From: Candidatus Omnitrophota bacterium
Lineage (GTDB): Bacteria > Omnitrophota > Gorgyraeia > 2-01-FULL-45-10
Length of the DNA stretch: 64,000 bases
Direction of reading: 5' to 3'
Assembly: GCA_028699255.1 (NCBI GenBank)
Contig: JAQVUX010000002.1
Span: 107,520 to 171,519, forward strand
How positions within the stretch are numbered: the stretch's first letter is position 1; each line of letters starts with the position of its first letter. Under the pieces are notes generated by a model. It saw only the letters and a list, made by a program, of their open reading frames with translations. It made no database searches and was not told where the DNA came from. Shown here piece after piece: positions 36,766 to 52,549 of the stretch. The position numbers and the translations under genes were made by a program.

Positions 36766-39759
36766 ATGAGAAGAATAAATTTCCTAATCGTTTGTGCGCT
36801 TACCTGTATTGTTATTGCCGGAGTTACGGAGCTCTGCTTTGCTTCTATCCCGCCTACTACTATAATAACTGCTAAACTGGATGCTAATCCCGCCGAAGAC
36901 ATTATCATTAACTTCGGTTCTCAACACGGTCTTTGGGTATATTCCAATAACTCTGTCTGGTTTCACCTTCACCCTATAAGTCCTAAGTCAATTACCAGAG
37001 CTGATCTTGATGGCAATGGCATCGATGATCTCGTGATCGACTTCGGTTCTCAGTACGGCGTCTATGTGTATAGCGATACCGGTGCATGGACTCAGCTTCA
37101 TATTTTTACCGCAAGCTCCATTACCGCCGCCGATCTTGACGGCAACGGTAAGGACGACATTATAATCGACTTTGGTCCCCAGTACGGCATCTATGTGTAT
37201 AGCGATACCGGTGCATGGATTCAGCTTCATACTTTAACCGCAAAGTCAATCACCGCCGCCGATCTTGACGGCAATGGTAAGGATGATATCATCGTAGACT
37301 TTGGTTCACAGTACGGCATCTATGTGTATAGCGATACCGGTGCATGGAATCAGCTACATAACTTCACCACAAAGTCTATCACCGCCGCCGATCTTGACGG
37401 CAACGGTAAGGATGATATCATCGTAGACTTTGGTTCAGAGTACGGCATCTATGTGTATAGCGATACCGGTGCATGGAATCAGCTACATAACTTCACCACA
37501 AAGTCTATCACCGCCGCCGATCTTGACGGCAACGGTATTGACGACATTATAATCGACTTTGGTTCTCAGTACGGCATTTGGATATATTACAACAACTCTA
37601 CATGGCAAAAATTACATGATCTTAGCCCATGGGCAGTGAATGTACCGCCGCCGCAATTCACGAATCTAACCGATAAGACCGTGGTCATAGGTAATTTATT
37701 ACAATTTACGTTAGAAGCTGACGGCTCCTATGTTCCTGCGGGTGAGCTTGCGTATTCGGTTGCAGGCCTGCCTCCGGATGCTTCGTTTGATGCCGCAAGC
37801 CGCACTATTTCATGGACGCCAACCCTATCCGATAAAGGGACCTACGACGTTACCTTTACCGTAACCAATGGCGCTACATCATCCACCAAATCTATCATTC
37901 TCTCGACTGTATATATAGAGGAAGCCTTGCTCACAAATGACGCAAGCATTGTGGGTAAACCGTCTATTTATGACGATAAAGTTATCTGGTCAGATAATAG
38001 AAATTCAAGCTACGATCTTTACCTGTATGATATCTCAGGCCATAGCGAATCGCTCCTAAATATTGATACCGCGGCAAAATTTAAACCTGCGATATATGGA
38101 GATAATATTGTATATATCGATCAGGACTTCAACCTTTATATGTACGATCTCTCCACAACCCAGAAGACTGAAGTAACAACGCTTTCTACAGCCGATAACG
38201 GACCGGCTATTTATAAAAATAAAATAGCATATGTAGCTGACCCCGTGAATATCTGTATATATGATATACCAACCGGACAAGTAACTGCGATAAGCGACGC
38301 AAGCTCAAGCCATGGATCTCTGAATATGGATGAAAATTCTCTCTTTTGGGAAAGTAGTCGATTGGATTCCGGCCAGAATGTTTATGATATATACACCTAC
38401 GACCTTCAAGCCGGAACTAAATCTATGGTATTAAATAATCTTGCTTTATGCGGATTTGCCGCATATGGAGATAAGATATCCTGGGCTCAATCAACCGGAC
38501 TATGGATATACAATATCTCTACAAAAGAGGGGATGCAGTTAACGCAAAATTCAGGCTCTATCAATCTTGCCATGTATGAGTATAGGATCGTATGGGCGGG
38601 AGATGATAGCCAAATCCACCTTACGGCCATGACTTTCTCGCCTCGTATTATCTCTGCCGATTGTGAGTGCGGCTACACAGGCTATAATGTCAATATAACC
38701 GGCACAAACCTTGGGTATAGCCAGGGTTCTTCAAATATTGAGTTAGGTGGTAGTGTTGTAAATGCGGCCATAACATCCTGGTCAGACACTTCCATTGTCT
38801 GCGTAATACCGTTTAATACTGATTTATCAGGTAATCAGACGCTGAAAGTAAATACTCCAGGGGGTAAGAGTAATGGTGTTGAGATAACCTTGCAGGATTT
38901 ATCAAAGCTTCCCACAAAACCGACTCTTAACACTTTTTCTACTCCTACCAGTAATACGGTGCAGACATTGTCAGGAACTAAAGATATTAATACCTCTATA
39001 TGGATGAACGGAGTTGAAAAAGTCCCCATAGATAGCTTTACTACATGGTCTGTCTCTATAACGTTGGCAGAGGGTCAAAACAATATAAACGTCACAGCGA
39101 AAAACTCCACAGGCGGAGAGAGTCAATCCGCTCTCGCGAGCATCTTACTTGATACAACCCCTCCCACAACCCCAGTAATGATAGATGATGGAGCTACTAC
39201 TAATTATATAAGCACTTTTCATGCTGTTTGGTCGGCTCAAGATGCGGAGTCTGGAATTATCGAGTATCGATATCGCATAACGGATGGCACTAATGGCGGA
39301 TCGGTAATTCGTGATTGGACATCAACGGGTGTAGTGCCGGAGGTGACGGCTACGGAATTATCTCTATCCAAAGGTCATACGTATTATTTCAGCGTCCAGG
39401 CCCGGAATGGCGCGGGGTTGTGGAGCTGTATAAGTTCGAGCGGCGGCGGTACATTAATACAGGCCGCGCCGGATATAATATCGATCAGCCCGGTTGCGGG
39501 AAGTATTCTGGACTCTGAGAATACGGTGGATTTTAATATAAACGCTATCGACCAGGAAGGGGACGCCATCCAGTATAGGATATTGGTTGACGGCGAGATT
39601 GTAAGCGATTGGAATAGCGCTCCAAATTTTAGCTGGCAGATGACGTCGCCCGAATCCGGCGCAAGGCAGGCTACGGTTTATGTTAAAGATACATGGGGCA
39701 ATGAAAACTCCGGTTGTGTATCGATATACCTGGCCAGAAAGGCATTGGAATTACCATGA
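36766..39759 (+). CDS. Giant secreted surface protein: 6x FG-GAP-like 42-aa repeats, beta-propeller (YD-type) repeats, IPT/Ig-like domains
   Basis: Signal peptide MRRINFLIVCALTCIVIAG; ADLDGNGKDDIIIDFGSQYGIYVYSDTGAW x6; IPT-like GYTGYNVNITGTNLG. Confidence 0.75.
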   Translation: MRRINFLIVCALTCIVIAGVTELCFASIPPTTIITAKLDANPAEDIIINFGSQHGLWVYSNNSVWFHLHPISPKSITRADLDGNGIDDLVIDFGSQYGVYVYSDTGAWTQLHIFTASSITAADLDGNGKDDIIIDFGPQYGIYVYSDTGAWIQLHTLTAKSITAADLDGNGKDDIIVDFGSQYGIYVYSDTGAWNQLHNFTTKSITAADLDGNGKDDIIVDFGSEYGIYVYSDTGAWNQLHNFTTKSITAADLDGNGIDDIIIDFGSQYGIWIYYNNSTWQKLHDLSPWAVNVPPPQFTNLTDKTVVIGNLLQFTLEADGSYVPAGELAYSVAGLPPDASFDAASRTISWTPTLSDKGTYDVTFTVTNGATSSTKSIILSTVYIEEALLTNDASIVGKPSIYDDKVIWSDNRNSSYDLYLYDISGHSESLLNIDTAAKFKPAIYGDNIVYIDQDFNLYMYDLSTTQKTEVTTLSTADNGPAIYKNKIAYVADPVNICIYDIPTGQVTAISDASSSHGSLNMDENSLFWESSRLDSGQNVYDIYTYDLQAGTKSMVLNNLALCGFAAYGDKISWAQSTGLWIYNISTKEGMQLTQNSGSINLAMYEYRIVWAGDDSQIHLTAMTFSPRIISADCECGYTGYNVNITGTNLGYSQGSSNIELGGSVVNAAITSWSDTSIVCVIPFNTDLSGNQTLKVNTPGGKSNGVEITLQDLSKLPTKPTLNTFSTPTSNTVQTLSGTKDINTSIWMNGVEKVPIDSFTTWSVSITLAEGQNNINVTAKNSTGGESQSALASILLDTTPPTTPVMIDDGATTNYISTFHAVWSAQDAESGIIEYRYRITDGTNGGSVIRDWTSTGVVPEVTATELSLSKGHTYYFSVQARNGAGLWSCISSSGGGTLIQAAPDIISISPVAGSILDSENTVDFNINAIDQEGDAIQYRILVDGEIVSDWNSAPNFSWQMTSPESGARQATVYVKDTWGNENSGCVSIYLARKALELP
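36990..37620 (+). repeat. Tandem 126-bp coding repeats (5-6 units, up to ~95% identical)
   Basis: e.g. 37321-37440 versus 37441-37560 nearly identical; encode the FG-GAP-like units. Confidence 0.8.
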
Positions 39760-40829
39760 GTAATAAAATATTTGCCATAATTATAGTTATAGCTTTATCG
39801 TTAACTCCACGTGTTTTTTGTGCTGAGGAAACTGTAAAAACCGAAGATGTATCGGCGACCATCGAAACGAATACGGAAGAAGTCGTTTCCAAAAAGAGCG
39901 CGGCGGCTATGGTCAAATCCTCGGCCTCGGCGGTGGCGTCTATGGCGGCGGGCGAAGACGTAAGTTCCGGCTCCGTCGGAGGAGGCGCTTCGCTGTCACC
40001 GCTTTTGAGCGAATCATTTCAGACGGATCTTGCCACCGGCAGTGCGACTGCCAATATTCCGATAGTCGTGCCGCCCGGTAGAAAGAATATGCAACCGTCG
40101 ATAGCGATCTCCTATTCCAGCAATAACCCCAATGGAGTGTGCGGCGTCGGCTGGGGGCTTACAACCTCCAGCATTCAGCGCTCGACCAAGAATGGAACTC
40201 CAAAATACGATAGCACGGATACATTTGTTTTTGCTTCAAGCGGATCGAGCGGCGACCTCGCCCTGATCGATGCCGAGAATAATGAATATCGTCAGAAGAT
40301 AGAGACGGGTTTTATGAAGTATGTCTTTGATCCTGCCGGCTTAAAATGGACGGTATGGGATAAAGCCGGCACTAAATATGTATTTGGCACTTCCGTCGAT
40401 TCGAGGATCGTGGGTGACGACGCTACGAAAATATTCGCGTGGTTTCTGGACAGGGTCGAAGACGTATATGGCAATACGGTGTTATTTACTTATGAAAAGG
40501 ATAGCGGGCAGATATATCTGGCCGGAGCTATTTATACCTCCAACTCTACTGTGACTCCGGCGCTCGCCGCGGATAAAGCGGTGAGCCTTGTTTACGAAAC
40601 CGGCAGGGCCGATATTGCCTATAATAACAGAGCCGGGTGGCAGATAGCTACCGCCAAACGATTAAAAGAGGTACAGGTTAAAGTCGATGGCGTTCTCGTG
40701 TGGCGGTATGCGTTCAGTTACTCGACGAGCGCGGATACGACACGCTCGCTCCTGACGCAGGTTACGCTTTTCGACGCGGCCGGCAACAGTCTGCCTCCGA
40801 AGAAATTTACGTATCAAACGATCGAGTAG
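39756..40829 (+). CDS. Stand-alone SpvB / TcB-N-terminal domain protein (secreted)
   Basis: Signal peptide; ANIPIVVPPGRKNMQPSIAISYSSNNPNGVCGVGWGLTTSSIQRSTKNGTPKYD matches the SpvB hallmark; ATGA overlap with upstream gene. Confidence 0.8.
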   Translation: MSNKIFAIIIVIALSLTPRVFCAEETVKTEDVSATIETNTEEVVSKKSAAAMVKSSASAVASMAAGEDVSSGSVGGGASLSPLLSESFQTDLATGSATANIPIVVPPGRKNMQPSIAISYSSNNPNGVCGVGWGLTTSSIQRSTKNGTPKYDSTDTFVFASSGSSGDLALIDAENNEYRQKIETGFMKYVFDPAGLKWTVWDKAGTKYVFGTSVDSRIVGDDATKIFAWFLDRVEDVYGNTVLFTYEKDSGQIYLAGAIYTSNSTVTPALAADKAVSLVYETGRADIAYNNRAGWQIATAKRLKEVQVKVDGVLVWRYAFSYSTSADTTRSLLTQVTLFDAAGNSLPPKKFTYQTIE

Positions 40830-40835
40830 ACAAAA

Positions 40836-43800
40836 ATGCGAAAATTTATTTCCATAATCCTGGTATTTGCCCACGTTGCGCTTATACTGCCTCTTCCCGA
40901 GGCGCACGCGATGGAGAGCGCCAATTTTAAGGTAACGGAGAGCGCCGTATCCTCCGGAGGCGGCTCAAACGGCGGTATTGGGGCGGATATCGCTTATTCA
41001 AATGCCGCGGAACCGGCTACGGGTAATGCGGAGAGTTCAAATTATAAGGCCTCGCTCGGCTACATAAATGTTATCGCCTCGAACCCGCCGATATTCAAAT
41101 CATTGATACCGGACGCGAATATGAGAGCGGTGTGGGATAAGGCTCAGCCATGCGCGACGACGATATCCCTCGATGGGTATTTTTCCAGCCCCGATAATTT
41201 GCCCCTTACATATATAGTAGAAGGTAACTCGCGGATATCTGCGGTTGTTAATCCCGTAACGCACGTCGTCAATTTTTCGCAGGGCGATGATTTTTCCGGT
41301 GCCGAGGCCGTCAGGTTCGTTGCTGTAGATGCCTCAGGCAATAGAACCGTGAGTAATTTTGTGATGCTTGTGGTGAAAGGGGCCGGTAATAATCCTCCGG
41401 TGATCCATCCGATCAGCGACATTACGGTGCGCGAGAACGAACTCGTTCAGGTCGCGCCGACGGTATTCGATCCGGATGGCGATGCTCTGACTATAACTTA
41501 CAGCGCGCCCTTAAACGATACGGGAAGCTGGCAGACGTCCTACAAAGACTCTGGTGCATATAAAATAACGGCTACCGTTTCGGACGGGACGCTAAAAGCT
41601 TCTTCCGCTTTTAATATAACCGTAAAAAATGTGAACAGGCCTCCGGTTATCGATACGATTGCCGGCGTAACGGTCAACGAAGGTGATGTCGTCAAATTAA
41701 ACGTTACAGCCCGCGATCCTGATGGCGATAATGTCACCATAGATTATCCGAATCCTCTGGATAGCGACGGAAGCTGGCAGACGACGTACAAAGATGCCGG
41801 GTCATACAGTTTTACGGTTACCGCATCGGACGGCGATTTGAGCTCGACGAGCGAAGCCAATGTTACCGTAAATCCCATCAACGCGGCGCCTCTGGTCCGG
41901 CTTTACTCCGATAAGACCAGCCTATCTGCGAATGAAGAATTCACGGTTTATCTGCTTGCGCAGGATCCCGACGGCGACCAATTGACGCTGACACTCAAAA
42001 AGGATGGGAGCGCGATATCCGGTTGCGAAAACATTGTTCTCGACGCCCAGACTTTTACAAAAACTATATCCATATCGAACGCGGGAAGTCACACCATCGA
42101 CGCTGTAGTTACGGAAACCGGCGTTTCGGGCGACGCGAATACCGCCTCGGCTACGCTTAAGATAAACGTCGATGAAAATTCCTCGTCGGACGTATATTTC
42201 CCGATATCCGGAGATTTTAACGGTGACGGCTTAACGGATCTCGGCTATTTTAACAGGGCGCTCGGGATATGGAAGGTTCAGTTGTCCAAGGGTGACGGTA
42301 CATTTGGGTCTGTCGAATACTGGATAGCGAGCGGATTCGGTAATAACGACAGCTATTGCTATCCTATGACGGGTGATTTTAACGGTGACGGTAAGACTGA
42401 CGCGGGTTTTATACGCGTGCCTACTTCAGACGGTGCCGGCTCGTATGTTCGGCTTGCGTTATCAAGCGGTACGGCCTTCAGCGCCCAAACAACCGACTGG
42501 CGCAGTACGAGTGCCGGGACACTGATGAGCGACTGGCATTACACGACGTTTACCGGCGATTTTAACGGCGACGGCATAAGCGATACCGGCCAGGTTCATT
42601 ACGAGGAGGCGAACTATCGTTACGTTGGGCTTACCGGCGCGAATGGCGCGGTATCGGCGATGGAAAATTGGATAAAAGGCGGAAGCCATGTTTCGACAGG
42701 TGAAATATCGCCCATCGCGGCCGATTTTAACGGCGATGGATTAACGGACGCGTGTTTTTTCAGGAAGGCATACGGCACATGGACTGTATGCCTCTCGAAG
42801 GGCGACAGGTTTGGCGATACGACTACCTGGCTAACGGTATTTGGCACGGATAAAGATCCCGTCCTGGCCGATTTTAACTGCGATGGCCTGACGGACATCG
42901 GTTATATGGTAAAGGAAGATTCGCAGTGGTCGGTAAAATATGCCATATCGGACGGAACGAAGTTTAATCTTAAGAACGGCGAAGCGTATACCTACAAGAC
43001 GCTTATATCCGATTCTGTAAGCGGTACATTCATATCCGGCGATTTTAACGGCGACGGCCTTTTTGATATAGCGGTATTTAATAAGGATACGCGTGAATGG
43101 ACGGTTAAACTACACCATTCGAAATATCCGGATCTGCTCATCGGAATAGATAACGGTATGAGCGGTACGACCACGATAACTTACAAGGATTCGGCCGTAT
43201 TCGATAATACCGGCGACGACGGACTGCCGACCCTGCCATTCTCGATACGCGTCGTGACGAGCGTGACCCAGTCGGACGGTCTCGGAAGTAATTACACGGC
43301 GAATTATTTTTACCGCGACGGCGCCTTCGACTCCGTCCAGCGCGAGTTCCGCGGGTTCGGTTACGTTAAAGTAATAGACGCCGAAGGAAGCTACAAAGAG
43401 ACGTATTTTAACCAGGATGACATATATAAAGGAAGGCCGTCGAAAGAAGTGGTGCGTGATAAGTATAACAATATTTACTCGCAGGTTTTGTATAACTGGC
43501 AGGATCGTAAATTATTCAGCGACGCGGTTGATTATCCATACCTTCTGGACAAAACCTCAAATGCTTATGATCCGGTTACCGGCGCGACTAAAAGCGCGAA
43601 AACTATATACACCTATGACGACTATGGCAATGCGGTAAATGTCAGGGAAGAGGGTTTCCTCGATACGGCAGGAGATGAGCAGGAGGCGCAGATCACGTAT
43701 TATTACGACACCGCAAACTGGATACTCTCAAAGCCGGTTGAGAGCAGGGTGAAGGACGCCGCGGGCAATGTGGCCGCGGCGACGAAATACGAATACTATT

Positions 43801-46800
43801 CGGACGGCGCCCTGAAGAAAGAGGAGCGATGGCTCGGGCGCGCGGGCGGCGCTCCGTCGTGGGGATCAGGCGACAACCCGACGGCCGAGTTTACTTACAG
43901 CGCTGTCGGAAACGTCGAGACGGTTAAGGACGCCCGCGGCAGTGTTACCGCTACCGCATACGATGCCACAATGACGTTCCCGGTAATAGTTACCAATGCG
44001 CTCGGCCATACCCAGCAATTTACCTATAATAAAGCCACCGGCAAGATACTTACTTCCACCGACCCGAATGGCCAGGTGTCGTCTTCGCAATACGACGGAT
44101 TCGGCCGGTTATATCATGTAGCCGGGCCGGGCAATATCTCCGAGGTTGCGTATACTTACGATCTGGCCTCAACCCCGACCAGGATAATATCCGCTACAAA
44201 AACGGCGGACGGAAGCTACGCGAAGGCTTTTAGCTTTATCGACGGCCTTGGCCGACAGATACTCTCGCGCTCCGAAGCCGAATATAGCGGCGCCGCGAAA
44301 CACATCGTTTCGGGCGAGGTGCGTTACAATTCGCGCGGTCAGGTTGTGCGTAAATACCTGCCTTATTATATCTCTGTCCCAGCCCCCGAAGACTTGTATA
44401 TGCCGCCGCAGAACGCGACGTGTTATGTCGCGTATGAGTATGACGCCATGGGACGTCTGGTCAAGACGATCCGTCCGGATAATAAGGTGAGTTACACCAT
44501 ATATGGCGTGAATAAGCTGGAAGCGGTAAACGAGAACGGCCAGCGCGCCGCGCAGACGAAAGACGCTTATGGCAGGATAGTCGAGGTTCAGGAAGACATG
44601 GGCGATATCACGAATTACGTTTATGATATGCTCGGCAATCTTACCGATACTTACGACAGCGCCTCAACGCGCAATCACGTCCATATGGAATACGATACTT
44701 TAGGGCGAAAAATATTGATGACCGATCCCGATATGGGCGGATTCGCCGGCAAGAGCTGGCAATATTATTACGACAGGGCAGGCAACCTCGTCAACCAGGT
44801 GGACGCAAAAGGGCAGAGCATAACTTTTCAGTATGATGTCATTAACCGACTGGTTAAAAAATGGGGACTGTCCCCGCAGGGGGCTGTCCCCATTTTTTCC
44901 GTTGATTATTTCTACGACGACTCCTCTAAGCCGAACTGCATCGGAAGGCTGTCGAGCGTTACAGATCCAAGCGGTTCGACGGAATTCTTTTACGATATTC
45001 TTGGCCGTGAGATAAAGACCACAAAAAATATAGGCACTTCTTCATATTCCGTGGAGCGCTCCTATGATTCGCTCGACAGGCTCGTTACCGTTAAATACCC
45101 CGACAGTACTGTTATTGCCTACGTATACAACAAGCAGGGCGGGATCGCTACAGTTACGGGCGAGCAGGGGGCTTCTTATGTTTCCTCGGTAAGTTATAAT
45201 GCGAACGGCCAGATAGAGCATATAGTGTATGGCAACGGTACCTCGACCGATTATGCTTATGATCCTTATAATTTCCGGCTCGATCAGCTGAAAACTTTCG
45301 ATCCGCAAAAAACGGCTATACAAAATCTTGCTTATAATTTTGATCCTATCGGAAATGTAACCTCGATCCAGGATAGCGTAAATACCAATACGCAATCTTT
45401 TCAATATGACAATCTGAACCGTTTGATACAGGCGACAGGCAATAGTTACGGGCAGATAAATTATACTTATGACTCTATCGGCAATATTCTTACTAAAGGC
45501 GCCATCAGAATGGAATACGGCGCCAACGCCGGAGCGCACGCGGTTACCGCGTATACATTAAACGACGTACGAAAAACCATAGTTTACGATCATAACGGCA
45601 ATATGACTGCGAAAGGCAACAGTAGTTTCGAGTATGATATAGAGAATAGGCTTAATAAAGTAATGGTCGAAAAAGGCGGCGAGCTCTTCGATCTTTCCCT
45701 CAATCTTGCCGTCGGATGGAATTTCTTCTCGCTTCCCGGATTTATCCCGAACACAGCCGGCAAGATCAAAGATGTGCTCGCTTCGATAGACGGGAAATAC
45801 GACCAGGTTTCGACGTACGATCCGGTTACGGGTAAGTGGCTCCACTACGTCGGAGATGAAAAATTCAACCAGTTCGACAAGTTCGAGATCGGCATTGGAT
45901 ACCTCATATATGTAAAAGAGGCGTGCACTTTAAGTTTGAGCGGATCGTTCCCGGCTACCGCCCAGGTCAGCCAGTTAAAGACCGGTTGGAACCTGGTGTC
46001 CGCGCCCACGACGTCCGAGATCGAGCCTTCCGAAGCGTTCCGTAACATAACCTACGATTCTATCGTCGAATATAACGGCACGGAATATATCCATGATCCG
46101 GCGACGCTCAAGAAAGGCAATGCCTACTGGCTGCATGTAACGAGTGACCAGGCGTGGACTGTGCCTCTGTCGCAGGTCGAAACTACCTACTCTTACGACG
46201 GCGATGGTGGAAGAGTTTTACGAACTTCCCCGTCATTGATTACAGATAACCTCGGAGGTTGCGCCGCAGCAGATAACCTCGGAGGTTGCGCCGCAGGCGC
46301 ATCCTCCGAGGTTGGCAAAGGTCAAGTCACCGTCTATGTCGGCTCCTCTTACGAAGCCGAAGGCCCTGCCGGCCAGTCACCCGACAAGATCACAAAGTAC
46401 ATCTACATGGGCTCGACACGCATCTGCTCGGTCGAGACGTCGTTGCGAGCCGCCGAAGGGGGCTCCTCGGGGGTGGTTAAGGCTTACTACTACCACGCCG
46501 ACCATATCGGCTCATCCAACGTCGTTACCGACGAAACCGGTAGCGTCGTGAATATTCTCGAATATTCGCCTTTCGGCGAAGTATCTCGCAACACCGGTAA
46601 TTACTCGACAGATAAGCGCTTCACTGGTAAGATATACGACGAAGGTTCCGCTCTTTACTATTACGGGGCACGTTATTACGACCCCGAACTCGGACGATTC
46701 ATCACGGCTGATACAGTTATTGCTTATCCATATGATCCCCAGTGTTTCAATAGATATTCCTACGCTCGAAATAATCCCATAGTCTACATCGACCCATCGG

Positions 46801-47699
46801 GACACTTCTGGTGGTTTATAATATGGGCTATATGTCAGGTCATATCGGCTATAGCTGCCGTTGTATCTGCGGTATGTACAGTCGCAAGTATGATTAGTAG
46901 CGCGGCGGGTAATCAGGCGTTAGCTAATACGTTTAGTTCCATTGCCCAAATAGCTGGTTGGGTTAGCATAGGGGCTGGGTTGACTGCCATAGGTGCGGCT
47001 ACCGCCGCCGAATCTGCCGCAGCCGGTGTAGCGGCCAACACATCGCAAAAGGTTGTTAGTGAAACGACTATATATGTAGTGAGAAAAAGTTCCGAAAATT
47101 CAGTCGAGATGGGTTTATTTTATGTGTCACATGAAGTGCCAGCGGCTATTCAAAGCAGTGCAGTAAGCGCGGTTGGGTCACTCGTTGCATCAGGAGTAGG
47201 GGCGGGGAGCGCCGTGATAAATAGTGCTATGTCAGGAGGGTCAACAGCAGGAAACGCTTTTGGTAATGCAAATGCACCCGGTTTTTATAAAGACCTTTAT
47301 CCAGGCCAATATCGAACACAACTAAGTGCAGGGGAGATTGGAATCGGATACAAAGGGGCTGGAATTTTTTATCATACAGGACTAGAAGCAAAAAGCATAT
47401 CAGGCGAAAGCGCCATAATAGATTTTAATAGAGCACCGGGTGCAAATAATCTGGACACATTATTAGGTAAAGACGTTCCTGGCAAATTCGGTGGCTCCGA
47501 AAATTATCAATTTTATTTAGTTGTAGATAATAATTCAACCAAAGTTAATGCATTTTTTGACATAGCTGCAAAACTTCATAATACGGATCATTCATACAAT
47601 TTATATGGCACAGGGAAACCATTTAATTGCTATGAAGGTCGTGATTGGGTTTTGGAGCAGTTGAAAATTAAGAATAATGTAAGGTGGCGGAATCAATGA
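40836..47699 (+). CDS. Tc-toxin BC-like Rhs polymorphic toxin: cadherin-like domains, FG-GAP propeller, TcdB mid-N, YD/Rhs repeats, Rhs core (DPxG), novel C-terminal toxin domain
   Basis: Own signal peptide; GDFNGDGLTD x7; REFRGFGYV (mid-N); YxYDxxGN repeats; YYYHADHIGSSNVVTDETG...ARYYDPELGRFITADTV...NPIVYIDPSGHF; then ~300-aa hydrophobic/Gly-Ala-rich + unknown domain. Confidence 0.85.
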   Translation: MRKFISIILVFAHVALILPLPEAHAMESANFKVTESAVSSGGGSNGGIGADIAYSNAAEPATGNAESSNYKASLGYINVIASNPPIFKSLIPDANMRAVWDKAQPCATTISLDGYFSSPDNLPLTYIVEGNSRISAVVNPVTHVVNFSQGDDFSGAEAVRFVAVDASGNRTVSNFVMLVVKGAGNNPPVIHPISDITVRENELVQVAPTVFDPDGDALTITYSAPLNDTGSWQTSYKDSGAYKITATVSDGTLKASSAFNITVKNVNRPPVIDTIAGVTVNEGDVVKLNVTARDPDGDNVTIDYPNPLDSDGSWQTTYKDAGSYSFTVTASDGDLSSTSEANVTVNPINAAPLVRLYSDKTSLSANEEFTVYLLAQDPDGDQLTLTLKKDGSAISGCENIVLDAQTFTKTISISNAGSHTIDAVVTETGVSGDANTASATLKINVDENSSSDVYFPISGDFNGDGLTDLGYFNRALGIWKVQLSKGDGTFGSVEYWIASGFGNNDSYCYPMTGDFNGDGKTDAGFIRVPTSDGAGSYVRLALSSGTAFSAQTTDWRSTSAGTLMSDWHYTTFTGDFNGDGISDTGQVHYEEANYRYVGLTGANGAVSAMENWIKGGSHVSTGEISPIAADFNGDGLTDACFFRKAYGTWTVCLSKGDRFGDTTTWLTVFGTDKDPVLADFNCDGLTDIGYMVKEDSQWSVKYAISDGTKFNLKNGEAYTYKTLISDSVSGTFISGDFNGDGLFDIAVFNKDTREWTVKLHHSKYPDLLIGIDNGMSGTTTITYKDSAVFDNTGDDGLPTLPFSIRVVTSVTQSDGLGSNYTANYFYRDGAFDSVQREFRGFGYVKVIDAEGSYKETYFNQDDIYKGRPSKEVVRDKYNNIYSQVLYNWQDRKLFSDAVDYPYLLDKTSNAYDPVTGATKSAKTIYTYDDYGNAVNVREEGFLDTAGDEQEAQITYYYDTANWILSKPVESRVKDAAGNVAAATKYEYYSDGALKKEERWLGRAGGAPSWGSGDNPTAEFTYSAVGNVETVKDARGSVTATAYDATMTFPVIVTNALGHTQQFTYNKATGKILTSTDPNGQVSSSQYDGFGRLYHVAGPGNISEVAYTYDLASTPTRIISATKTADGSYAKAFSFIDGLGRQILSRSEAEYSGAAKHIVSGEVRYNSRGQVVRKYLPYYISVPAPEDLYMPPQNATCYVAYEYDAMGRLVKTIRPDNKVSYTIYGVNKLEAVNENGQRAAQTKDAYGRIVEVQEDMGDITNYVYDMLGNLTDTYDSASTRNHVHMEYDTLGRKILMTDPDMGGFAGKSWQYYYDRAGNLVNQVDAKGQSITFQYDVINRLVKKWGLSPQGAVPIFSVDYFYDDSSKPNCIGRLSSVTDPSGSTEFFYDILGREIKTTKNIGTSSYSVERSYDSLDRLVTVKYPDSTVIAYVYNKQGGIATVTGEQGASYVSSVSYNANGQIEHIVYGNGTSTDYAYDPYNFRLDQLKTFDPQKTAIQNLAYNFDPIGNVTSIQDSVNTNTQSFQYDNLNRLIQATGNSYGQINYTYDSIGNILTKGAIRMEYGANAGAHAVTAYTLNDVRKTIVYDHNGNMTAKGNSSFEYDIENRLNKVMVEKGGELFDLSLNLAVGWNFFSLPGFIPNTAGKIKDVLASIDGKYDQVSTYDPVTGKWLHYVGDEKFNQFDKFEIGIGYLIYVKEACTLSLSGSFPATAQVSQLKTGWNLVSAPTTSEIEPSEAFRNITYDSIVEYNGTEYIHDPATLKKGNAYWLHVTSDQAWTVPLSQVETTYSYDGDGGRVLRTSPSLITDNLGGCAAADNLGGCAAGASSEVGKGQVTVYVGSSYEAEGPAGQSPDKITKYIYMGSTRICSVETSLRAAEGGSSGVVKAYYYHADHIGSSNVVTDETGSVVNILEYSPFGEVSRNTGNYSTDKRFTGKIYDEGSALYYYGARYYDPELGRFITADTVIAYPYDPQCFNRYSYARNNPIVYIDPSGHFWWFIIWAICQVISAIAAVVSAVCTVASMISSAAGNQALANTFSSIAQIAGWVSIGAGLTAIGAATAAESAAAGVAANTSQKVVSETTIYVVRKSSENSVEMGLFYVSHEVPAAIQSSAVSAVGSLVASGVGAGSAVINSAMSGGSTAGNAFGNANAPGFYKDLYPGQYRTQLSAGEIGIGYKGAGIFYHTGLEAKSISGESAIIDFNRAPGANNLDTLLGKDVPGKFGGSENYQFYLVVDNNSTKVNAFFDIAAKLHNTDHSYNLYGTGKPFNCYEGRDWVLEQLKIKNNVRWRNQ
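46243..46313 (+). repeat. Exact 27-bp tandem duplication followed by a 17-bp-stem hairpin, inside the Rhs ORF
   Basis: CAGATAACCTCGGAGGTTGCGCCGCAG x2 (46243-69, 46270-96); AACCTCGGAGGTTGCGC cgcag GCGCATCCTCCGAGGTT pairs at 16/17 positions. Confidence 0.7.
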
Positions 47700-48103
47700 T
47701 TCCTTATGACTCTTGGATAAATAAAAAGCGATTTGGACGATTTACACTTTTATTGAGCCCTGTTTATTTTATAACCGCTACCTATCAAGTGTCTATGTAT
47801 ATTATATCAGCTGAAATTCGTAAATATGGAATTAGTCTATTAGTTTTTCCATTTGCACTTTTTCTTGTGCTGGTTGGAGTTGTCCGGGTATATTTAAGTT
47901 ATTTACTTCTTAGAAATGCTTGCGAAGAATGGATGATTAAATTAATTTTTGTTTTTCTTTGCGCTATTGAAATTTTTTTTGGATTTTTTGCAGGATTGAT
48001 TCTTATTGCTGAACTTGGGTTAATTGGCAATATAATAGTTATGCTATTTGTGATTTATTATGTATATGCATTATTGTTTTTTAGGAATAAAATAGAGAAT
48101 TAG
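47696..48103 (+). CDS. Putative immunity protein (4-TM membrane protein) for the Rhs C-terminal toxin
   Basis: Overlaps the toxin stop (ATGA at 47696); RBS AAGGTGG; ~4 hydrophobic helices; AT-rich. GTG 47684 is an alternative start. Confidence 0.5.
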   Translation: MIPYDSWINKKRFGRFTLLLSPVYFITATYQVSMYIISAEIRKYGISLLVFPFALFLVLVGVVRVYLSYLLLRNACEEWMIKLIFVFLCAIEIFFGFFAGLILIAELGLIGNIIVMLFVIYYVYALLFFRNKIEN

Positions 48104-48153: not shown

Positions 48154-49443
48154 ATGAAAACCAGGTTTAGCTTGATAGCAGTATTTTTATCTGCCGCGAT
48201 TTTGCTGTTTGCTTCCACAGCCTCTGCCGCGATCCCGCATCTCATGAACTTTCAGGGCAAGGCAACGGATAAGGCGGGAGCGCCGTTAAGTGGCACATAT
48301 AATCTCACGTTCAGGATATACGATGCCGAAACCGGAGGCGCCGCGAAATGGTCCGAGACCCAAACCGGCGTTCAGATAACGAATGGTATCTTCCAGGTTC
48401 AATTAGGCAGTGTTACCGCACTAACCCTGTCTTTCGATGTGCCATACTGGATATCGCTCGAGATCAACACAGACGGCGAGATGTCTCCCCGGACGCGTCT
48501 TGCATCGGTACCGTATGCGTATGCGGCTCAATCTCTATCTGAAGCACCAGTCATCCCATTCTACAGAAAGGGCTTCGATATTGTCTCTATAGATTTTAAC
48601 TCAATTAAAATCTCAGCCGGTGTTATGGACCTGGTGGGCAAAATGTTTGCGTCTACTATATATTCGGATCCGTTGCGACTTGAATGCCTGACAGAGCCTA
48701 AAAACCAGGACTGGATTCACGGATCAAAAACCCCCAACTCTGTGGCTTACGTTTATGCATTTAATAATGCCGGCCAGATAGCATTTAAATTTTCGGATGA
48801 GGCCCCTACTCTATCCGATTATTATGGGAATACCGCACAACAGCCTTTTTTGTACAAGCGATACCCCGAAACGAGCGAAGGAGTATATTATCGATATATT
48901 GGCCAAATACAGTTGGATGATGCAGGTAATCCGGGGCTTATTAGTAACATCGAGCAGATTGCGTCCACTGTGCGGCATCCGACATCTTATTATGTTTATG
49001 GAACAGCGAGTATATATCACAAAAACGATTCATTGGTATCCGGTGCGATCGGGTCTGTTCATCCGATCTATACAAAAAAGAAAGAGACGAAGATCCTTGC
49101 GCCGCTTTCTAATGTTACCATTAATGTGTCGTTCAAAATCACAGCATCATCTAACAATGGGCCAATGTATCATCAGCTATATAAAAACGGCACGGCTATT
49201 CCTGGAACTGAAGTTTTGTCTGAATCCGGTTTTAACGGGGTTTATGCATATGATGTTACTGGCGTGAATCAGGGTGATTTGATTCAGGTATATTTGGCTG
49301 CAAAATGGAACTCGGCCATCAATCCTACGGTAAGCGAGCTTCGGATAAATGGCGCGGCGATCAACTATGACAACTTTCCCAACATGGGAGCCGAAACGAA
49401 GTTTTATATAGATTCGGGCAGTTTCGGGCAGAGTAATTTATAA
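48154..49443 (+). CDS. Secreted protein with conserved N-terminal domain (IPHLMNFQGKATD...) of unknown function
   Basis: Signal peptide ending ASA; no recognisable catalytic motifs. Confidence 0.6.
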   Translation: MKTRFSLIAVFLSAAILLFASTASAAIPHLMNFQGKATDKAGAPLSGTYNLTFRIYDAETGGAAKWSETQTGVQITNGIFQVQLGSVTALTLSFDVPYWISLEINTDGEMSPRTRLASVPYAYAAQSLSEAPVIPFYRKGFDIVSIDFNSIKISAGVMDLVGKMFASTIYSDPLRLECLTEPKNQDWIHGSKTPNSVAYVYAFNNAGQIAFKFSDEAPTLSDYYGNTAQQPFLYKRYPETSEGVYYRYIGQIQLDDAGNPGLISNIEQIASTVRHPTSYYVYGTASIYHKNDSLVSGAIGSVHPIYTKKKETKILAPLSNVTINVSFKITASSNNGPMYHQLYKNGTAIPGTEVLSESGFNGVYAYDVTGVNQGDLIQVYLAAKWNSAINPTVSELRINGAAINYDNFPNMGAETKFYIDSGSFGQSNL

Positions 49444-49531: not shown

Positions 49532-50221
49532 ATGTGTCATGAATCTTGCATTAATTTTGGAAAAAGAATTATTAAAAAAGAATATGTTGAGAATAAATTT
49601 GTGCTGGAAGTAGGCTCTATGGATATCAATGGTTCTCTGAGATCTTTCATAGAATCGTTTGCCCCTGTTGAATATATTGGGGTTGACATGCAAAAAGGAC
49701 CCGGGGTTGACCTGGTGTGCGCCGCCGAAGATATTGTAAACAAATTTGGACGAAACAAATTCGATTTAGTAATTTGCACAGAAGTCTTGGAACATGTGAA
49801 AAATTGGAAAAAAGTTATTTGGAATTTGAAGCATGTTGTAAAGCCAGGAGGAATAGTGGTCGTAACTACCAGATCAAAAGGGTTCCCGAATCATAGCTAT
49901 CCTTTTGATTTTTGGAGATATGAGATTTCTGACATAGAACATATATTCGCTGATTTTGATATTAAGGTCTTGGAAAAAGATACCGGTGCGCCAGGAGTCT
50001 TTCTTTTAGCTAAAAAAACTATTTTTTTAACTAATGGCAAGGCTGTCAGCATTGACCTTTACTCAATGCTGTTGGGAAAAAGATGCTCGATAGCGGCAAT
50101 CTATTTTTACACTTTTCCTATGCAAATGAAGGTTTATTTTAGGCATCCTTTGAAGTTTTTTACGATGATATGGTGTAGTTGTGTAAAATTATTTGTTGCG
50201 GCAAGCCGTTTTTTTAAATAA
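49532..50221 (+). CDS. Class I SAM-dependent methyltransferase
   Basis: VLEVGSMDINGS (motif I), DLVICTEVLEHV (motif II/III). Confidence 0.7.
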   Translation: MCHESCINFGKRIIKKEYVENKFVLEVGSMDINGSLRSFIESFAPVEYIGVDMQKGPGVDLVCAAEDIVNKFGRNKFDLVICTEVLEHVKNWKKVIWNLKHVVKPGGIVVVTTRSKGFPNHSYPFDFWRYEISDIEHIFADFDIKVLEKDTGAPGVFLLAKKTIFLTNGKAVSIDLYSMLLGKRCSIAAIYFYTFPMQMKVYFRHPLKFFTMIWCSCVKLFVAASRFFK

Positions 50222-50237
50222 ACAAAATAAATAAAAG

Positions 50238-50270
50238 TAGACACTTTATATAACACCATACAGCTAAAAG
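50238..50270 (+). promoter_or_regulatory. 33-bp conserved upstream motif (copy 2)
   Basis: TAGACACTTTATATAACACCATACAGCTAAAAG, upstream of the lipoprotein gene. Confidence 0.5.
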
Positions 50271-50291
50271 CGATGGTCGAGAAAGCGTAAT

Positions 50292-50924
50292 ATGAAAAGA
50301 GCGTTATTTCTAATCTTATCAATCCTTATGCTATCAGGATGTGCAAGCACCTTAAGTAATGTTAAAGAAAATGAGCCATTAATCGTATCATCAGATAAAA
50401 GCGTTGTTTTTGGCAAGGTCTCATTCTATATGCCCTCTGGCGCCGAATGTAAAGCCATGTTCATAAATGTGAAGACCAATAAATTTTATGAAATTCAAGC
50501 AAATGACGGGCCTTTTATAAGATATACGTTCTTTGAGAAGAATAAAAATTTTAAAGGCTATGTCGAAAAGACTTTTTATATTGCGCTTCCTCCAGGAGAC
50601 TATCGCTTCACTACGCTACGCTTCATGGAATATAATCAAAATGTCAGCGATGTTTATCCAAAGATAGACTTTTCTGTTTCGCCAAACGCAATCGTGTATA
50701 TTGGAACTCTTAAGCTTACACCTAAAGATATGCATAACTATATTCTATTTAGCGCAGGTCATGTAAATATAGCGATATATGATGAGAAAGATAACGCAAT
50801 TAAAGAATTAAAAGAAAAATATCCTAGCTTGAATGGCGAGGTCGTTACCAGTTTAATGAAGATACTTAGTAATAAAAAAGATAAAGGCGGCACAACAACA
50901 CAAGAGAACAAAGGGGCGGAGTGA
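50292..50924 (+). CDS. Lipoprotein, unknown function
   Basis: Signal peptide + lipobox LSGCAST; AT-rich. Confidence 0.6.
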   Translation: MKRALFLILSILMLSGCASTLSNVKENEPLIVSSDKSVVFGKVSFYMPSGAECKAMFINVKTNKFYEIQANDGPFIRYTFFEKNKNFKGYVEKTFYIALPPGDYRFTTLRFMEYNQNVSDVYPKIDFSVSPNAIVYIGTLKLTPKDMHNYILFSAGHVNIAIYDEKDNAIKELKEKYPSLNGEVVTSLMKILSNKKDKGGTTTQENKGAE

Positions 50925-51496
50925 AAAAAGTCGCTTATTTATTTACTGCAATACTATTTATTAGCGGGTGTGCGTGGCAAAGGATCCCGGCAATGCCCAC
51001 TTACAATGTTTCAAAAACAATTCCTATAAAGGTTGGCGTAGTATTGGGAGACACTTCCGCGTCTTTCGAGAATGGTTACGGTGTGGTAAAAAATTTGAAA
51101 GAAATGAGAGTGTTTGATGAAATTATTTTTCCGTATGAGAAAAACAATCAAGTTGATGGTATTCTCAAAATGGATATAAATGGCGGTTGGAACTCATCCG
51201 CGCTGTTCGAGTCTGCAAAAGGTACTCTTATCGGTCTTTCTATGGGTACTTTGGGTATGGCGATAGGTTCAAGCGGGACAGGTACCCACGATGCGATTAT
51301 TACACTTAATAAAGGTTCGATAGAAGTGGCGAGATATTCAGTGCATATTAAAACTACTGTGGAGTGTGGGATAAAAGCAGATTTAAGTGACGTTGACTAT
51401 AAAGCTAAAGGTCTCCAACACCGCAAACTGGCCGTTGAGATTGCCAAGCATATAAGCGACGATTATTCACGTATCGTAGAAGAATTTAAAAAATAG
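50921..51496 (+). CDS. Lipoprotein, unknown function
   Basis: Signal peptide + lipobox ISGCAWQ; overlaps upstream gene by 4 nt. Confidence 0.6.
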   Translation: MKKVAYLFTAILFISGCAWQRIPAMPTYNVSKTIPIKVGVVLGDTSASFENGYGVVKNLKEMRVFDEIIFPYEKNNQVDGILKMDINGGWNSSALFESAKGTLIGLSMGTLGMAIGSSGTGTHDAIITLNKGSIEVARYSVHIKTTVECGIKADLSDVDYKAKGLQHRKLAVEIAKHISDDYSRIVEEFKK

Positions 51497-51529
51497 AGAC
51501 TATCTATATTGCGCCAGTAGGGGGGCAAG

Positions 51530-52549
51530 ATGAATAAAGTTATAGTCAGGATTTCAATAATACTGACAGCGGTATTTTTATTGCGTGCTACGTGTAGTGC
51601 CACTGAGATTACAAAAATACCTAGTGATCCAAATTATATCAAGTTTTTAGAATATGGCTCACAAGGAAAATTTGAAGATGCGGAAAAAGAATTAAAACTA
51701 ATAAAGGCAAAACAATATGAAATGTTAATACATATTAATCTTAATGTGATTAAGAGCATATTTGATAAAAAAATCACAGAACAGACTGCAATGCATCTAT
51801 TTAATGGGTCTTATTATCTTGAAAAAGGTGAAACAAAAAAAGCAATCGCAGAACTTAACGAAGCTATTGCAGCTAATCCCAACTATTCAGAAACTTATCG
51901 CAAAATGGGCATTGCTTATTCTGCTGATGGTAAATTTGGGAAGGCAATATCTGAATTAACCAAAGCTATAAAAATCGATCCTATGAATGAATATCTTTAT
52001 TTTACTCGCGGAAGTATTTATTTTAAAGATGGTTATTATAGTAAAGCAAGCGATGACCATACTAAAGCGATAGAGATAGCACCAAATAACGCCAAATTTT
52101 ATGAACAAAGAGCTGTTTGTTATTATATGAAAGGGAAGTATGATAAAGTAATAGATGATTTTAGTAAGGCAATATCAATCGACCATAGTGATCCCAATGT
52201 CTATATACAGCGAGGTGTTGCGTATAGCATGAAAAAGCAATACAACAAAGCTAAAGATGATTTTGAGAAGGCGATGAAAATAGATCCTATTAATAGTTTC
52301 GCATATTTAAACCGCGGGATTTTAAATTTTGTGGCATTAAATGATGATGCTGCATGCACAGATTTTAAAACTGCCATAAAATTAAAGCTTGATAATATTT
52401 TGGCATATTTGTGGTTGGCAGATACATATTATCGACAACATGATTACGATAAAACATGGGAAACTGTTAACAAGATATTGGAATTGAAGGGGAAAGTTAA
52501 TCCCAGTTTTCTTGATAAATTGAAAAAGGAATCCGGTAGAGAAAAATAA
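51530..52549 (+). CDS. Secreted TPR-repeat protein
   Basis: Signal peptide; >=7 TPR units (AxxxxxKAIxxxPxxxxxYxxRG pattern). Confidence 0.75.
   Translation: MNKVIVRISIILTAVFLLRATCSATEITKIPSDPNYIKFLEYGSQGKFEDAEKELKLIKAKQYEMLIHINLNVIKSIFDKKITEQTAMHLFNGSYYLEKGETKKAIAELNEAIAANPNYSETYRKMGIAYSADGKFGKAISELTKAIKIDPMNEYLYFTRGSIYFKDGYYSKASDDHTKAIEIAPNNAKFYEQRAVCYYMKGKYDKVIDDFSKAISIDHSDPNVYIQRGVAYSMKKQYNKAKDDFEKAMKIDPINSFAYLNRGILNFVALNDDAACTDFKTAIKLKLDNILAYLWLADTYYRQHDYDKTWETVNKILELKGKVNPSFLDKLKKESGREK

Follow-up and report, generated by a model that had tools for sequence, protein, structure and literature searches.

What do the last 300 residues of a 2287-aa Rhs protein from an Omnitrophota MAG encode, and what is the role of the small membrane-protein gene that overlaps their end? 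We examined this locus within a stretch of 64,000 nucleotides (the window, whose numbering is used throughout). A preliminary description had recognised here a C-terminal Rhs toxin of the polymorphic type, in a cassette with an immunity-like partner gene, an interpretation that the core motif, the overlapping gene and the orphan pairs reported below support.

The Rhs shell protein and the start of its tip

The Rhs protein begins with a signal peptide and continues through Big_9/cadherin/PKD, FG-GAP and TcdB_toxin_midN domains into RHS repeats (PF05593, E 3e-42, for the ORF at 40836-47699) and a Rhs-associated core. Upstream lies a separate SpvB ORF with its own signal peptide, MSNKIFAIIIVIALSLTPRVFCA, which is in frame with the Rhs ORF across a gap of one TAG and two codons; in L006, another Omnitrophota Rhs, the SpvB domain is instead fused to the Rhs protein. 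Among the neighbouring ORFs scanned in the 64-kb window we found no T6SS genes and no TcA gene or TcA-type domain. The features discussed here are as follows.

39756-40829, + strand: separate secreted SpvB (TcB N-terminal) protein (Pfam SpvB, E 1e-27)
40836-47699, + strand: Rhs / TcB-TcC-like shell protein, 2287 aa (NCBI MDD3905374.1, Candidatus Omnitrophota MAG)
40836-40910, + strand: Sec signal peptide of the Rhs protein
46563-46805, + strand: Rhs-associated core (NCBIfam TIGR03696, 1-76 of 76 positions, E 4e-23)
46806-47177, + strand: variable hydrophobic leader, CT residues 4-127 (Kyte-Doolittle maximum 2.36)
47178-47276, + strand: conserved Gly/Ala/Ser-rich connector, SLVASGVGAGSAVINSAMSGGSTAGNAFGNANA, joining the leader to the predicted enzyme domain
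47277-47696, + strand: ~140-aa toxin domain, modelled as a circularly permuted NlpC/P60 papain-like fold
47373-47375, 47427-47429 and 47628-47630, + strand: predicted triad of His2180, Asn2198 and Cys2265, respectively
47696-48103, + strand: candidate immunity gene, whose product is an integral membrane protein of 135 aa with four helices (NCBI MDD3905375.1)

Because the last residue in the TIGR03696 match is the YIDPSGH His, at nt 46803-46805 (core motif DPSGH), we placed the start of the C-terminal tip (CT) at 46806. Alignment of the window protein to L006 (40% identity) ends at the same place (YIDPSGH / YIDPTGN). GC3 falls from 0.576 in the core to 0.381 in the hydrophobic stretch that follows, 0.257 in the soluble domain and 0.199 in the membrane-protein gene, the lowest value in the window, before reaching 0.472 in the next gene; the mean for the other window ORFs is 0.553 (sd 0.107). 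The drop in base composition that had been noted by eye at the core/CT junction is therefore real for GC3, which breaks at the junction itself. Raw GC stays at ~0.49 across the hydrophobic stretch, since Gly and Ala codons are GC-rich, and falls only near 47300. Elsewhere in the window, further AT-rich islands occur at 30.5-31.7 kb and 49.5-52.5 kb, so that low GC is not confined to the cassette. Since similarity to L006 and GC3 both change at YIDPSGH, this motif is, as judged from sequence, the point of tip exchange, and it is also a predicted autoproteolysis site.

Family members and their overlapping partner genes

Among ~15 billion proteins, the toxin-domain family has five members, namely the window protein, P0001, P0005 (truncated), P0006 and P0007, and the three with a named source are all from Omnitrophota MAGs. 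When genome and metagenome contigs were scanned with the family profile, only the known loci came up. The domain occurs exclusively as a Rhs tip or as an orphan tip: its homologues (4/4) and the sole leader homologue are all orphan cassettes with a piece of Rhs core still attached, and orphan cassettes with such remnants adjoin recombinases and insertion sequences. The earlier proposal that the tip was displaced by recombination fits both these cassettes and the abrupt end of similarity at YIDPSG. We found no flanking repeats around the window cassette and no orphan Rhs remnants elsewhere in the window.

At all four loci with sequence 3' of the domain, an overlapping gene encodes a small (135-150 aa) polytopic membrane protein, and the 4-nt overlap of the two genes is conserved. 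In the window, the ATG at 47696 overlaps the Rhs stop codon, TGA at 47697-47699 (ATGA), and is preceded by the putative ribosome-binding site AAGGTGG. The NCBI annotation likewise gives 135 aa; a 139-aa form would begin at GTG 47684. No terminator was found 3' of the gene. Both hydropathy and an AF2 model (pLDDT 69) place four long helices at residues 10-42, 47-72, 78-107 and 109-134, bearing out the overlapping four-helix membrane gene of the preliminary description, and the protein has almost no extramembrane loops, being nearly all membrane-embedded.

A search of 5.8 billion protein clusters for homologues of the 135-aa protein gave two matches, itself and P0004 (70% identity). The P0004 gene overlaps the end of the P0001 gene in the same way, P0001 being the closest homologue of the window toxin, and the two form an orphan pair. 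Conservation of the partner independently of Rhs loci had been set out as a result that would count against the toxin-immunity interpretation; the membrane protein was never found away from the toxin. P0006 and P0007 are each accompanied by an overlapping ~140-aa four-helix membrane gene as well, and a profile comparison of these partners with the group of the window partner detected no homology.

Taken together, the sequences place the locus among the Rhs polymorphic toxins. It has RHS/YD repeats and a Rhs-associated core that terminates in a PxxxxDPxG(L/H) motif, a variable tip that starts at this motif and differs from that of a related Rhs, and a downstream candidate immunity gene that is co-inherited with the tip and recurs with it in orphan tip-immunity cassettes. 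Protection is a prediction; the four-helix protein probably protects the producer. We also considered that there may be no toxin-immunity pair here at all, the C-terminus serving to anchor a surface Rhs adhesin in the producer membrane and the downstream gene being unrelated. We infer that the 27-residue hydrophobic helix of the tip could be a stop-transfer anchor in a Sec substrate, but the recurrence of domain and membrane partner as orphan cassettes beside recombinases and insertion sequences, the conserved overlap, the sharp composition break and the absence of solitary copies of the membrane protein make this explanation highly improbable.

Architecture of the tip and predicted activity of its conserved domain

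Three segments make up the tip, the variable hydrophobic leader coming first, then a conserved Gly-rich connector and finally the ~140-aa domain. The hydrophobic stretch after the core spans 157 aa (CT residues 4-160) and is rich in Ala, Gly and Ser (Ala 22%, Ser 16%, Gly 10%, and Val a further 12%). Charged residues number only 8; its Kyte-Doolittle 19-residue maximum is 2.36 and it contains 24 small-xxx-small-xxx-small motifs. These values uphold the earlier reading of a hydrophobic, Gly/Ala zipper-like stretch. "Zipper-like" is a fair description, and "glycine zipper" is too strong, as a strict GxxxGxxxG occurs only once, within the connector (Kyte-Doolittle 1.67). The leader itself contains a helix of transmembrane grade, FWWFIIWAICQVISAIAAVVSAVCTVASMI, plus another hydrophobic stretch that is weaker and rich in small residues.

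The first ~125 leader residues of the window protein and P0001 are not alignable; the connector is conserved in P0001 along with the predicted enzyme domain, and the region overall (CT 128-300) is 72% identical. Between these two closest relatives, the identity of the immunity proteins (70%) follows that of CT 128-300 and not the first ~125 leader residues. In P0006 the domain starts 13 residues past DLWGL with no leader, and in P0007 a non-hydrophobic linker (Kyte-Doolittle maximum 0.61) takes its place. The sole relative of the leader, P0002 (36% identity), bears an unrelated C-terminal domain and is followed by a gene whose start encodes a hydrophobic helix. Because two members are leaderless yet have an overlapping four-helix gene, and because the leader homologue is attached to an unrelated domain, the leader is, on these alignments, a modular and exchangeable accessory and the predicted enzyme is the likely toxin.

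These observations bear directly on pore formation by the hydrophobic stretch, which the preliminary description had raised. Here the Gly/Ala-rich helices would themselves be lethal and depolarising, as in Tse5-CT, EsxX and the CDI ionophores, the four-helix protein would block their insertion or oligomerisation, and the soluble domain would be an accessory or a second activity. The transmembrane-grade hydrophobicity of the leader and its many small-xxx-small motifs agree with such a role, as do an immunity protein lying almost wholly in the membrane, which would suit an intramembrane interaction, and the hydrophobic helix at the start of the gene that follows P0002. There is also a precedent in Tse5/Tsi5, in which the Rhs protein forms pores and a membrane protein of two helices confers immunity (PMC9637101). 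However, the leaders of the window protein and P0001 cannot be aligned despite their similar immunity proteins, P0006 and P0007 retain polytopic partners where the stretch is absent, the leader occurs on different C-terminal domains, as would a delivery or anchoring module, and the conserved His, Asn and Cys of the domain (below) point to selected catalysis. The hydrophobic fragment does not appear to be the toxic element that specifies immunity, as it would be in a Tse5-like toxin, and we regard a pore as unlikely and not the best fit to the data.

Alternatively, the leader could be a translocation module that permeabilises the target inner membrane so that the enzyme reaches a cytoplasmic target, a role put forward for the Tde1 glycine zipper. 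A T6SS DNase reportedly depends on GxxxG to permeabilise the membrane and be translocated (PMC10240207), and the modularity of the leader across different C-terminal domains would be compatible with this. A cytoplasmic target would lead one to expect soluble cytoplasmic immunity, but every partner is an integral membrane protein, even in the leaderless members, and we consider translocation distinctly unlikely.

The tip, both of its halves and the membrane protein had no match in Pfam (E up to 10), NCBIfam or PDB sequences, and a PDB profile search with the toxin domain was empty. Pfam, including LRAT, Peptidase_C92, Peptidase_C97 and NLPC_P60, gave no match to the toxin domain, and the curated models PF04970, PF05708, PF05903, DUF6695 and DUF4105 showed no significant similarity to it. 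In hhalign comparisons the family profile aligned at the NC motif with human PLAAT3 and with a PPPDE-like orphan tip in L005, in both cases at a probability of <1%.

The domain model, built on a five-sequence alignment and with pLDDT <50 in the loop preceding the Cys, is more informative. It shows a predicted papain-like alpha+beta fold in which the conserved His lies in a strand, the Asn in the next strand and the Cys at the N-terminus of the last helix (model helix 118-128), so that the His strand would precede the Cys helix as in a circular permutation. The His...Asn...Cys order and the position of the Cys fit the permuted NlpC/P60 topology (H-box/NC-like). Cys, His and a polar third residue, Asn, are conserved in every family member covering those columns, indicating selection on catalysis by a predicted triad. 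Since the Pfam and PDB-profile searches were empty and hhalign probabilities were below 1%, we treat the toxin domain as a new family, placed by its model in the permuted NlpC/P60 superfamily at the fold level only. It was "unrecognisable", as first described, to sequence searches only; the predicted fold, with its His...Cys order, can be recognised.

The predicted fold matches that of lipid-cutting toxins. Other members of the permuted NlpC/P60 fold cleave isopeptide or thioester bonds. The enzyme could have another substrate, acting as a cell-wall amidase or endopeptidase, or as a hydrolase or acyltransferase on lipoproteins, lipid II or protein thioesters/isopeptides, with the leader serving only to place it on the periplasmic side of the membrane. 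Known effectors with peptidoglycan-amidase activity mostly pair with soluble, periplasmic immunity proteins and are not known to be paired with minimal-loop four-helix proteins, which argues against this possibility. In its favour, TseH is lethal when it acts in the periplasm, can lyse permeabilised cells and was initially proposed to be a peptidoglycan (cell-wall) hydrolase (PMC4453574), and relatives include lipoprotein N-acyltransferases, according to the Tox-Act1 paper (PMC12994826). That work, however, also holds that the permutation creates a lipid-specific hydrophobic pocket and reports phospholipase activity of TseH on liposomes (PMC12994826). We judge a non-lipid substrate of this kind to be a minority possibility and rather unlikely.

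The explanation we favour, to which we give an even chance, is that the last 300 Rhs residues, with the gene that follows them, make up an exchangeable cassette of toxin and immunity, namely a lipid-directed acyl hydrolase or transferase and an intramembrane immunity protein. After Sec export the tip would be cut at the core motif and kept inside the Rhs shell, which by analogy with Tse5 may also shield the greasy leader. Once a target bacterium is contacted, the leader would enter a membrane and keep the Cys-His enzyme at the lipid surface, where, like Tox-Act1 and TseH, it may attack membrane lipids with phospholipase A or acyltransferase activity. Neutralisation of the toxin by the four-helix protein would take place within the inner membrane of the producer or at its surface. 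A Rhs shell is able to bring hydrophobic cargo to a membrane (PMC10684867), and immunity proteins to lipid-targeting polymorphic toxins are generally transmembrane proteins or lipoproteins (PMC12419801). The lipid substrate, activity on PE/PG and periplasmic toxicity are suggested by the fold and the membrane-embedded partner through analogy with these systems; the link to the membrane made in the preliminary description is likely. Points against this explanation are the absence of sequence similarity to known families, the lack of detected homology between the partners of P0006 and P0007 and that of the window, and the need for a near-loopless partner to block a soluble active site.

Predatory or parasitic lifestyles are suspected in the phylum Omnitrophota. 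A further and doubtful extension is that the Ala/Gly/Ser-rich leader is a new exchangeable, self-inserting delivery module of T6SS-independent, Sec-exported Omnitrophota Rhs cocoons, with the four-helix partner as both intramembrane chaperone and antidote. Such a partner would be needed because the leader would otherwise be a stop-transfer signal, lodging in the producer's inner membrane during export. If true, the cocoon would carry an insertion device and varied enzymatic domains to prey membranes without an injection machine.

Confirmation of the favoured lipid-directed reading would add a new sequence family, missed by current profile libraries (Pfam, NCBIfam and PDB profiles), to the lipid-targeting permuted NlpC/P60 antibacterial toxins, a class recognised only recently, and would extend this class from T6SS cargo of Proteobacteria to Sec-dependent Rhs / TcB-TcC-like cocoons in uncultivated Omnitrophota. 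The near-loopless polytopic partners would provide a test case for intramembrane neutralisation of an interfacial enzyme. The modular leader raises the questions of how a Sec substrate with a transmembrane-grade segment enters the Rhs shell and by what route non-T6SS Rhs toxins reach target membranes. The general picture of polymorphic toxins is unchanged; the cassette represents a new family within an already known type of bacterial weapon.

Comparison with known toxins

One of the closest parallels is Tox-Act1/Imm-Act1 (Salmonella T6SS; PLoS Biol 2026), in which a permuted NlpC/P60 toxin cleaves PG and PE from the periplasm and the immunity protein has two transmembrane helices (PMC12994826). 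The window cassette resembles it in the permuted NlpC/P60 core (predicted here), the His and Cys residues and a membrane immunity protein and, under the proposed reading, would share its action on membrane phospholipids. The four predicted transmembrane helices of the window partner recall membrane-embedded immunity of the Tox-Act1 type by analogy, not as membership, given two helices in Imm-Act1. Unlike Tox-Act1, which has no detectable sequence similarity to the window domain, lacks a hydrophobic leader and is stand-alone T6SS cargo, the window domain has such a leader and forms the end of a Rhs / TcB-TcC-like protein with a Sec signal. TseH/TsiH (Vibrio cholerae T6SS; PDB 6v98, Pfam DUF6695) shows 8% identity to the window domain, which has no Pfam match, and TseH has no Rhs fusion.

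Mammalian PLAAT/LRAT enzymes, which have the same fold, are anchored to membranes by hydrophobic helices. Compared with these (H-RAS-like suppressor) and picornavirus 2A H-box/NC proteins, the window tip has its anchor N-terminal to the domain, whereas that of PLAAT is C-terminal, and Asn is the predicted third member of its triad, in contrast to His in LRAT/PLAAT-type H-box/NC proteins.

Tse5/Tsi5 of Pseudomonas aeruginosa has a Rhs shell enclosing a hydrophobic, membrane-inserting C-terminal fragment, together with a small integral membrane immunity protein, an arrangement proposed for the window cassette as well. Tse5-CT, however, has no enzymatic domain, is itself the pore and is delivered by a T6SS (PAAR/VgrG), whereas in the window family the hydrophobic part is dispensable and the predicted enzyme domain is conserved.

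Finally, the TcB-TcC cocoons of Tc (ABC) toxins have the same SpvB, FG-GAP propeller, TcdB_toxin_midN, RHS repeats, Rhs core and variable tip. In contrast to Tc toxins, the 64-kb window contains no TcA gene and its SpvB part is a separate secreted protein; the Rhs protein also has extra Ig/cadherin domains and is accompanied by a candidate immunity gene, a difference that points to a bacterial target.

The Rhs protein, its tip and the adjoining membrane-protein gene

The following features make up the locus (window coordinates).

39756-40829, same frame as the Rhs ORF: SpvB-domain protein (TcB N-terminal), encoded by a separate ORF, signal peptide included
40836-47699, + strand: Rhs protein of 2287 aa, from the ORF and its domain matches
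47696-48103: candidate immunity gene, 135 aa, ATG at 47696 in an ATGA overlap, ribosome-binding site AAGGTGG upstream

The 2287-aa Rhs protein is MDD3905374.1, encoded in a Candidatus Omnitrophota MAG; clustering at 90% leaves it a singleton. Besides a Sec-type signal peptide it contains bacterial Ig/cadherin/PKD domains, FG-GAP repeats, a TcdB_toxin_midN domain and RHS repeats, and it matches the whole of the NCBIfam Rhs-associated core model (E 4e-23). This match ends on the His of YIDPSGH (nt 46803-46805); position 46800, where the preliminary description began the toxin region, thus marks the core/tip junction. Since the SpvB-domain protein is separate, in frame and just upstream, we liken the locus to a TcB-TcC cocoon in its split form, with the SpvB part as an ORF of its own; no TcA or T6SS gene was detected among the neighbouring ORFs scanned. 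Only one TAG plus two codons separate the two ORFs (window 39756-40835), whereas L006, a related Omnitrophota locus, has the SpvB domain and the Rhs protein joined in one chain. The arrangement in the window could stem from splitting of the gene, from a nonsense mutation of recent date or from a stop codon that is read through. Within the Rhs gene we also noted a perfect 27-nt tandem duplication (46243-46313), which encodes DNLGGCAA twice and sits in a ∼29-aa insertion missing from the L006 Rhs; its second copy and the bases after it form an 18-nt inverted repeat.

The hydrophobic stretch seen earlier occupies the first 157 residues of the 300-aa tip (47% Ala, Gly and Ser, 8 charged residues), in which one helix is of transmembrane grade (Kyte-Doolittle 2.36) and two further stretches, rich in small residues, are less strongly hydrophobic. 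Its likeness to a Gly/Ala zipper holds in part: small-xxx-small motifs are plentiful (24), but the strict GxxxGxxxG occurs just once. A hydrophobic helix of 27 residues, placed close to the C-terminus of a Sec substrate, would be expected to behave as a stop-transfer signal. The start codon and ribosome-binding site of the downstream gene agree with the overlap described previously, and its product (MDD3905375.1, annotated as “hypothetical protein”) shows the four long helices expected of it in hydropathy analysis as well as in its AF2 model (pLDDT 69).

The change in composition at the core/tip junction, formerly judged by eye, is evident in GC3, which falls from 0.576 in the core to 0.381 in the leader and 0.257 in the soluble domain (window mean 0.553, sd 0.107); the membrane-protein gene stands at 0.199 and the gene after it at 0.472. 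Raw GC drops only at about 47300, since Gly and Ala codons keep the leader GC-rich. More AT-rich islands (30480-31711 and 49532-52549; GC3 0.25-0.36 against the window mean of 0.55), holding two flavodoxin-like genes, a methyltransferase, two unknown-function ORFs and a TPR protein, may be other horizontally acquired segments. Directly after the cassette, a 429-aa secreted protein (48154-49443), possibly a prey- or cell-recognition fibre, has an N-terminus weakly matching NF053851, the Bdellovibrio “mosaic adhesive trimer” fibre N-domain (E 5.9e-9; its 35.9 bits fall short of the cutoff, 60).

Relatives and exchange of the cassette

A whole-tip search of 5.8 billion protein clusters returned two relatives. 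P0001 resembles the window tip over CT residues 128-300 (72% identity) and lacks this resemblance in the first ∼125 residues, and P0002 shares the hydrophobic leader alone (36% identity), its C-terminal domain being unrelated; the leader is paired with differing C-terminal domains. An exhaustive profile search with the soluble domain against 1.84 billion representatives gave four proteins in all, P0001, P0005, P0006 and P0007, the last two from two further Omnitrophota MAGs. The membrane protein had one homologue among 5.8 billion clusters (P0004, 70% identity), whose gene occupies the same 4-nt-overlapping position after P0001.

Each of the five tip relatives is an Rhs tip or orphan tip. The Rhs core left before P0001 is just YYVDPTGY, and before P0002 just QYVDPTGNF; both P0006 and P0007 have full-length Rhs genes upstream, and the latter retains about 160 residues of near-identical core, a classic substrate for tip replacement. 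Similarity between the window and L006 Rhs proteins ends exactly at the DPxG motif. Together with the orphan tips bearing core remnants and the GC3 break, this fits the proposed displacement of tip and immunity gene by recombination. The Rhs C-terminus carries a real toxin-immunity-type cassette; that there is no toxin pair at all is very improbable, being contradicted by the orphan-cassette behaviour.

The closest toxin-immunity homologue, the P0001/P0004 pair (L001 1-4087; ENA ERZ27247916 k141_864112), is an orphan cassette between two tyrosine recombinase genes and a Y1 (IS200-like) transposase gene, and these flanking genes suggest recombinase-associated mobility. P0005 (L007 1339-3530) is a copy of the toxin domain truncated to 77 aa; it abuts an IS3-type transposase (rve), with a PhdYeFM/ParE toxin-antitoxin pair downstream of it.

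In P0006 the enzyme domain begins 13 residues after DLWGL without a hydrophobic leader, and the linker of P0007 is non-hydrophobic (Kyte-Doolittle maximum 0.61). The gene after each overlaps it and encodes a 137-150-aa protein with about four hydrophobic helices; the two partners are homologues (E 1e-8) with no detectable homology to the window partner. Because P0006 and P0007 are leaderless yet partnered, a small polytopic membrane partner follows the soluble domain with or without the leader. This weakens the pore-forming reading offered previously: a Tse5-like pore formed by the leader is quite unlikely, since the leader can be missing or swapped and the immunity protein goes with the enzyme-containing region.

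Predicted fold of the soluble domain

No sequence library searched recognised the soluble domain, in keeping with the earlier remark that it held no recognisable motif; its predicted fold, however, is that of the permuted NlpC/P60 superfamily.

Table. Fold comparison of the soluble domain.
TseH: 7.4
Aichivirus 2A: 6.8
PLAAT4: 6.4
YiiX: 6.3
Bacillus YiiX-like peptidase: 5.9
Euglena complex I subunit: 5.7
PPPDE/DeSI-2: 5.6
CLN5: 5.3

His2180 (YHTG), Asn2198 ((D/G)FN) and Cys2265 (NCY) are conserved throughout the members that cover them. The model places His2180 in a strand, Asn2198 in the next strand and Cys2265 at the N-terminus of the last helix, a predicted layout matching that expected for permuted “H-box/NC” enzymes. 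Very probably, then, the domain belongs to this superfamily at the fold level and outside any curated family; we keep the assignment at that level because the loop before Cys2265 is of low confidence and the geometry comes from a predicted model.

Proposed action and known precedents

From the observed anatomy and co-occurrence patterns we infer cleavage, delivery, substrate and protection as follows. A cut at the core motif would free the tip, which would be kept within the Rhs shell; the leader would enter the target membrane and tether the enzyme there; the enzyme would deacylate or transacylate membrane lipids; and the four-helix protein would neutralise it in the producer's own membrane. 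We give this whole chain an even chance. It is unlikely that the same fold acts on another substrate (peptidoglycan, a lipoprotein or a protein acyl linkage), and highly unlikely that the leader translocates an enzyme acting in the cytoplasm, which fits poorly with integral-membrane partners.

In two other Omnitrophota MAGs the main Rhs tips (L006 3101-3771 and L005 208-919) carry a PLA2-like motif (PGYGNYGGP...HD), with a weak PF08398 match in L006 (E 0.11), and each precedes a ∼75-aa protein predicted to span the membrane with two helices. By their motifs these are a second lipid-type tip, which again ties lipid-directed tips in the lineage to membrane partners. Another orphan tip (L005 3053-3988), with a His...NC pattern (SHSY ... 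NNCKDH), a weak PPPDE/Peptidase_C97 match (E 0.022) and a 149-aa membrane protein after it, may represent a second, distinct permuted papain-like toxin family within the same array.

The immunity proteins paired with lipid-targeting polymorphic toxins are generally membrane proteins or lipoproteins, and one of them has a four-helix core (PMC12419801). The cassette described here is of a known system type; its modular hydrophobic leader is unusual, and its toxin domain, novel in sequence, is placed by its predicted fold among permuted NlpC/P60 proteins. Its nearest functional precedent is the recently described Tox-Act1, a T6SS effector of that superfamily that cleaves PG and PE, kills from the periplasm, needs its His and Cys, and has an immunity protein with two transmembrane helices; TseH has phospholipase activity too (PMC12994826).
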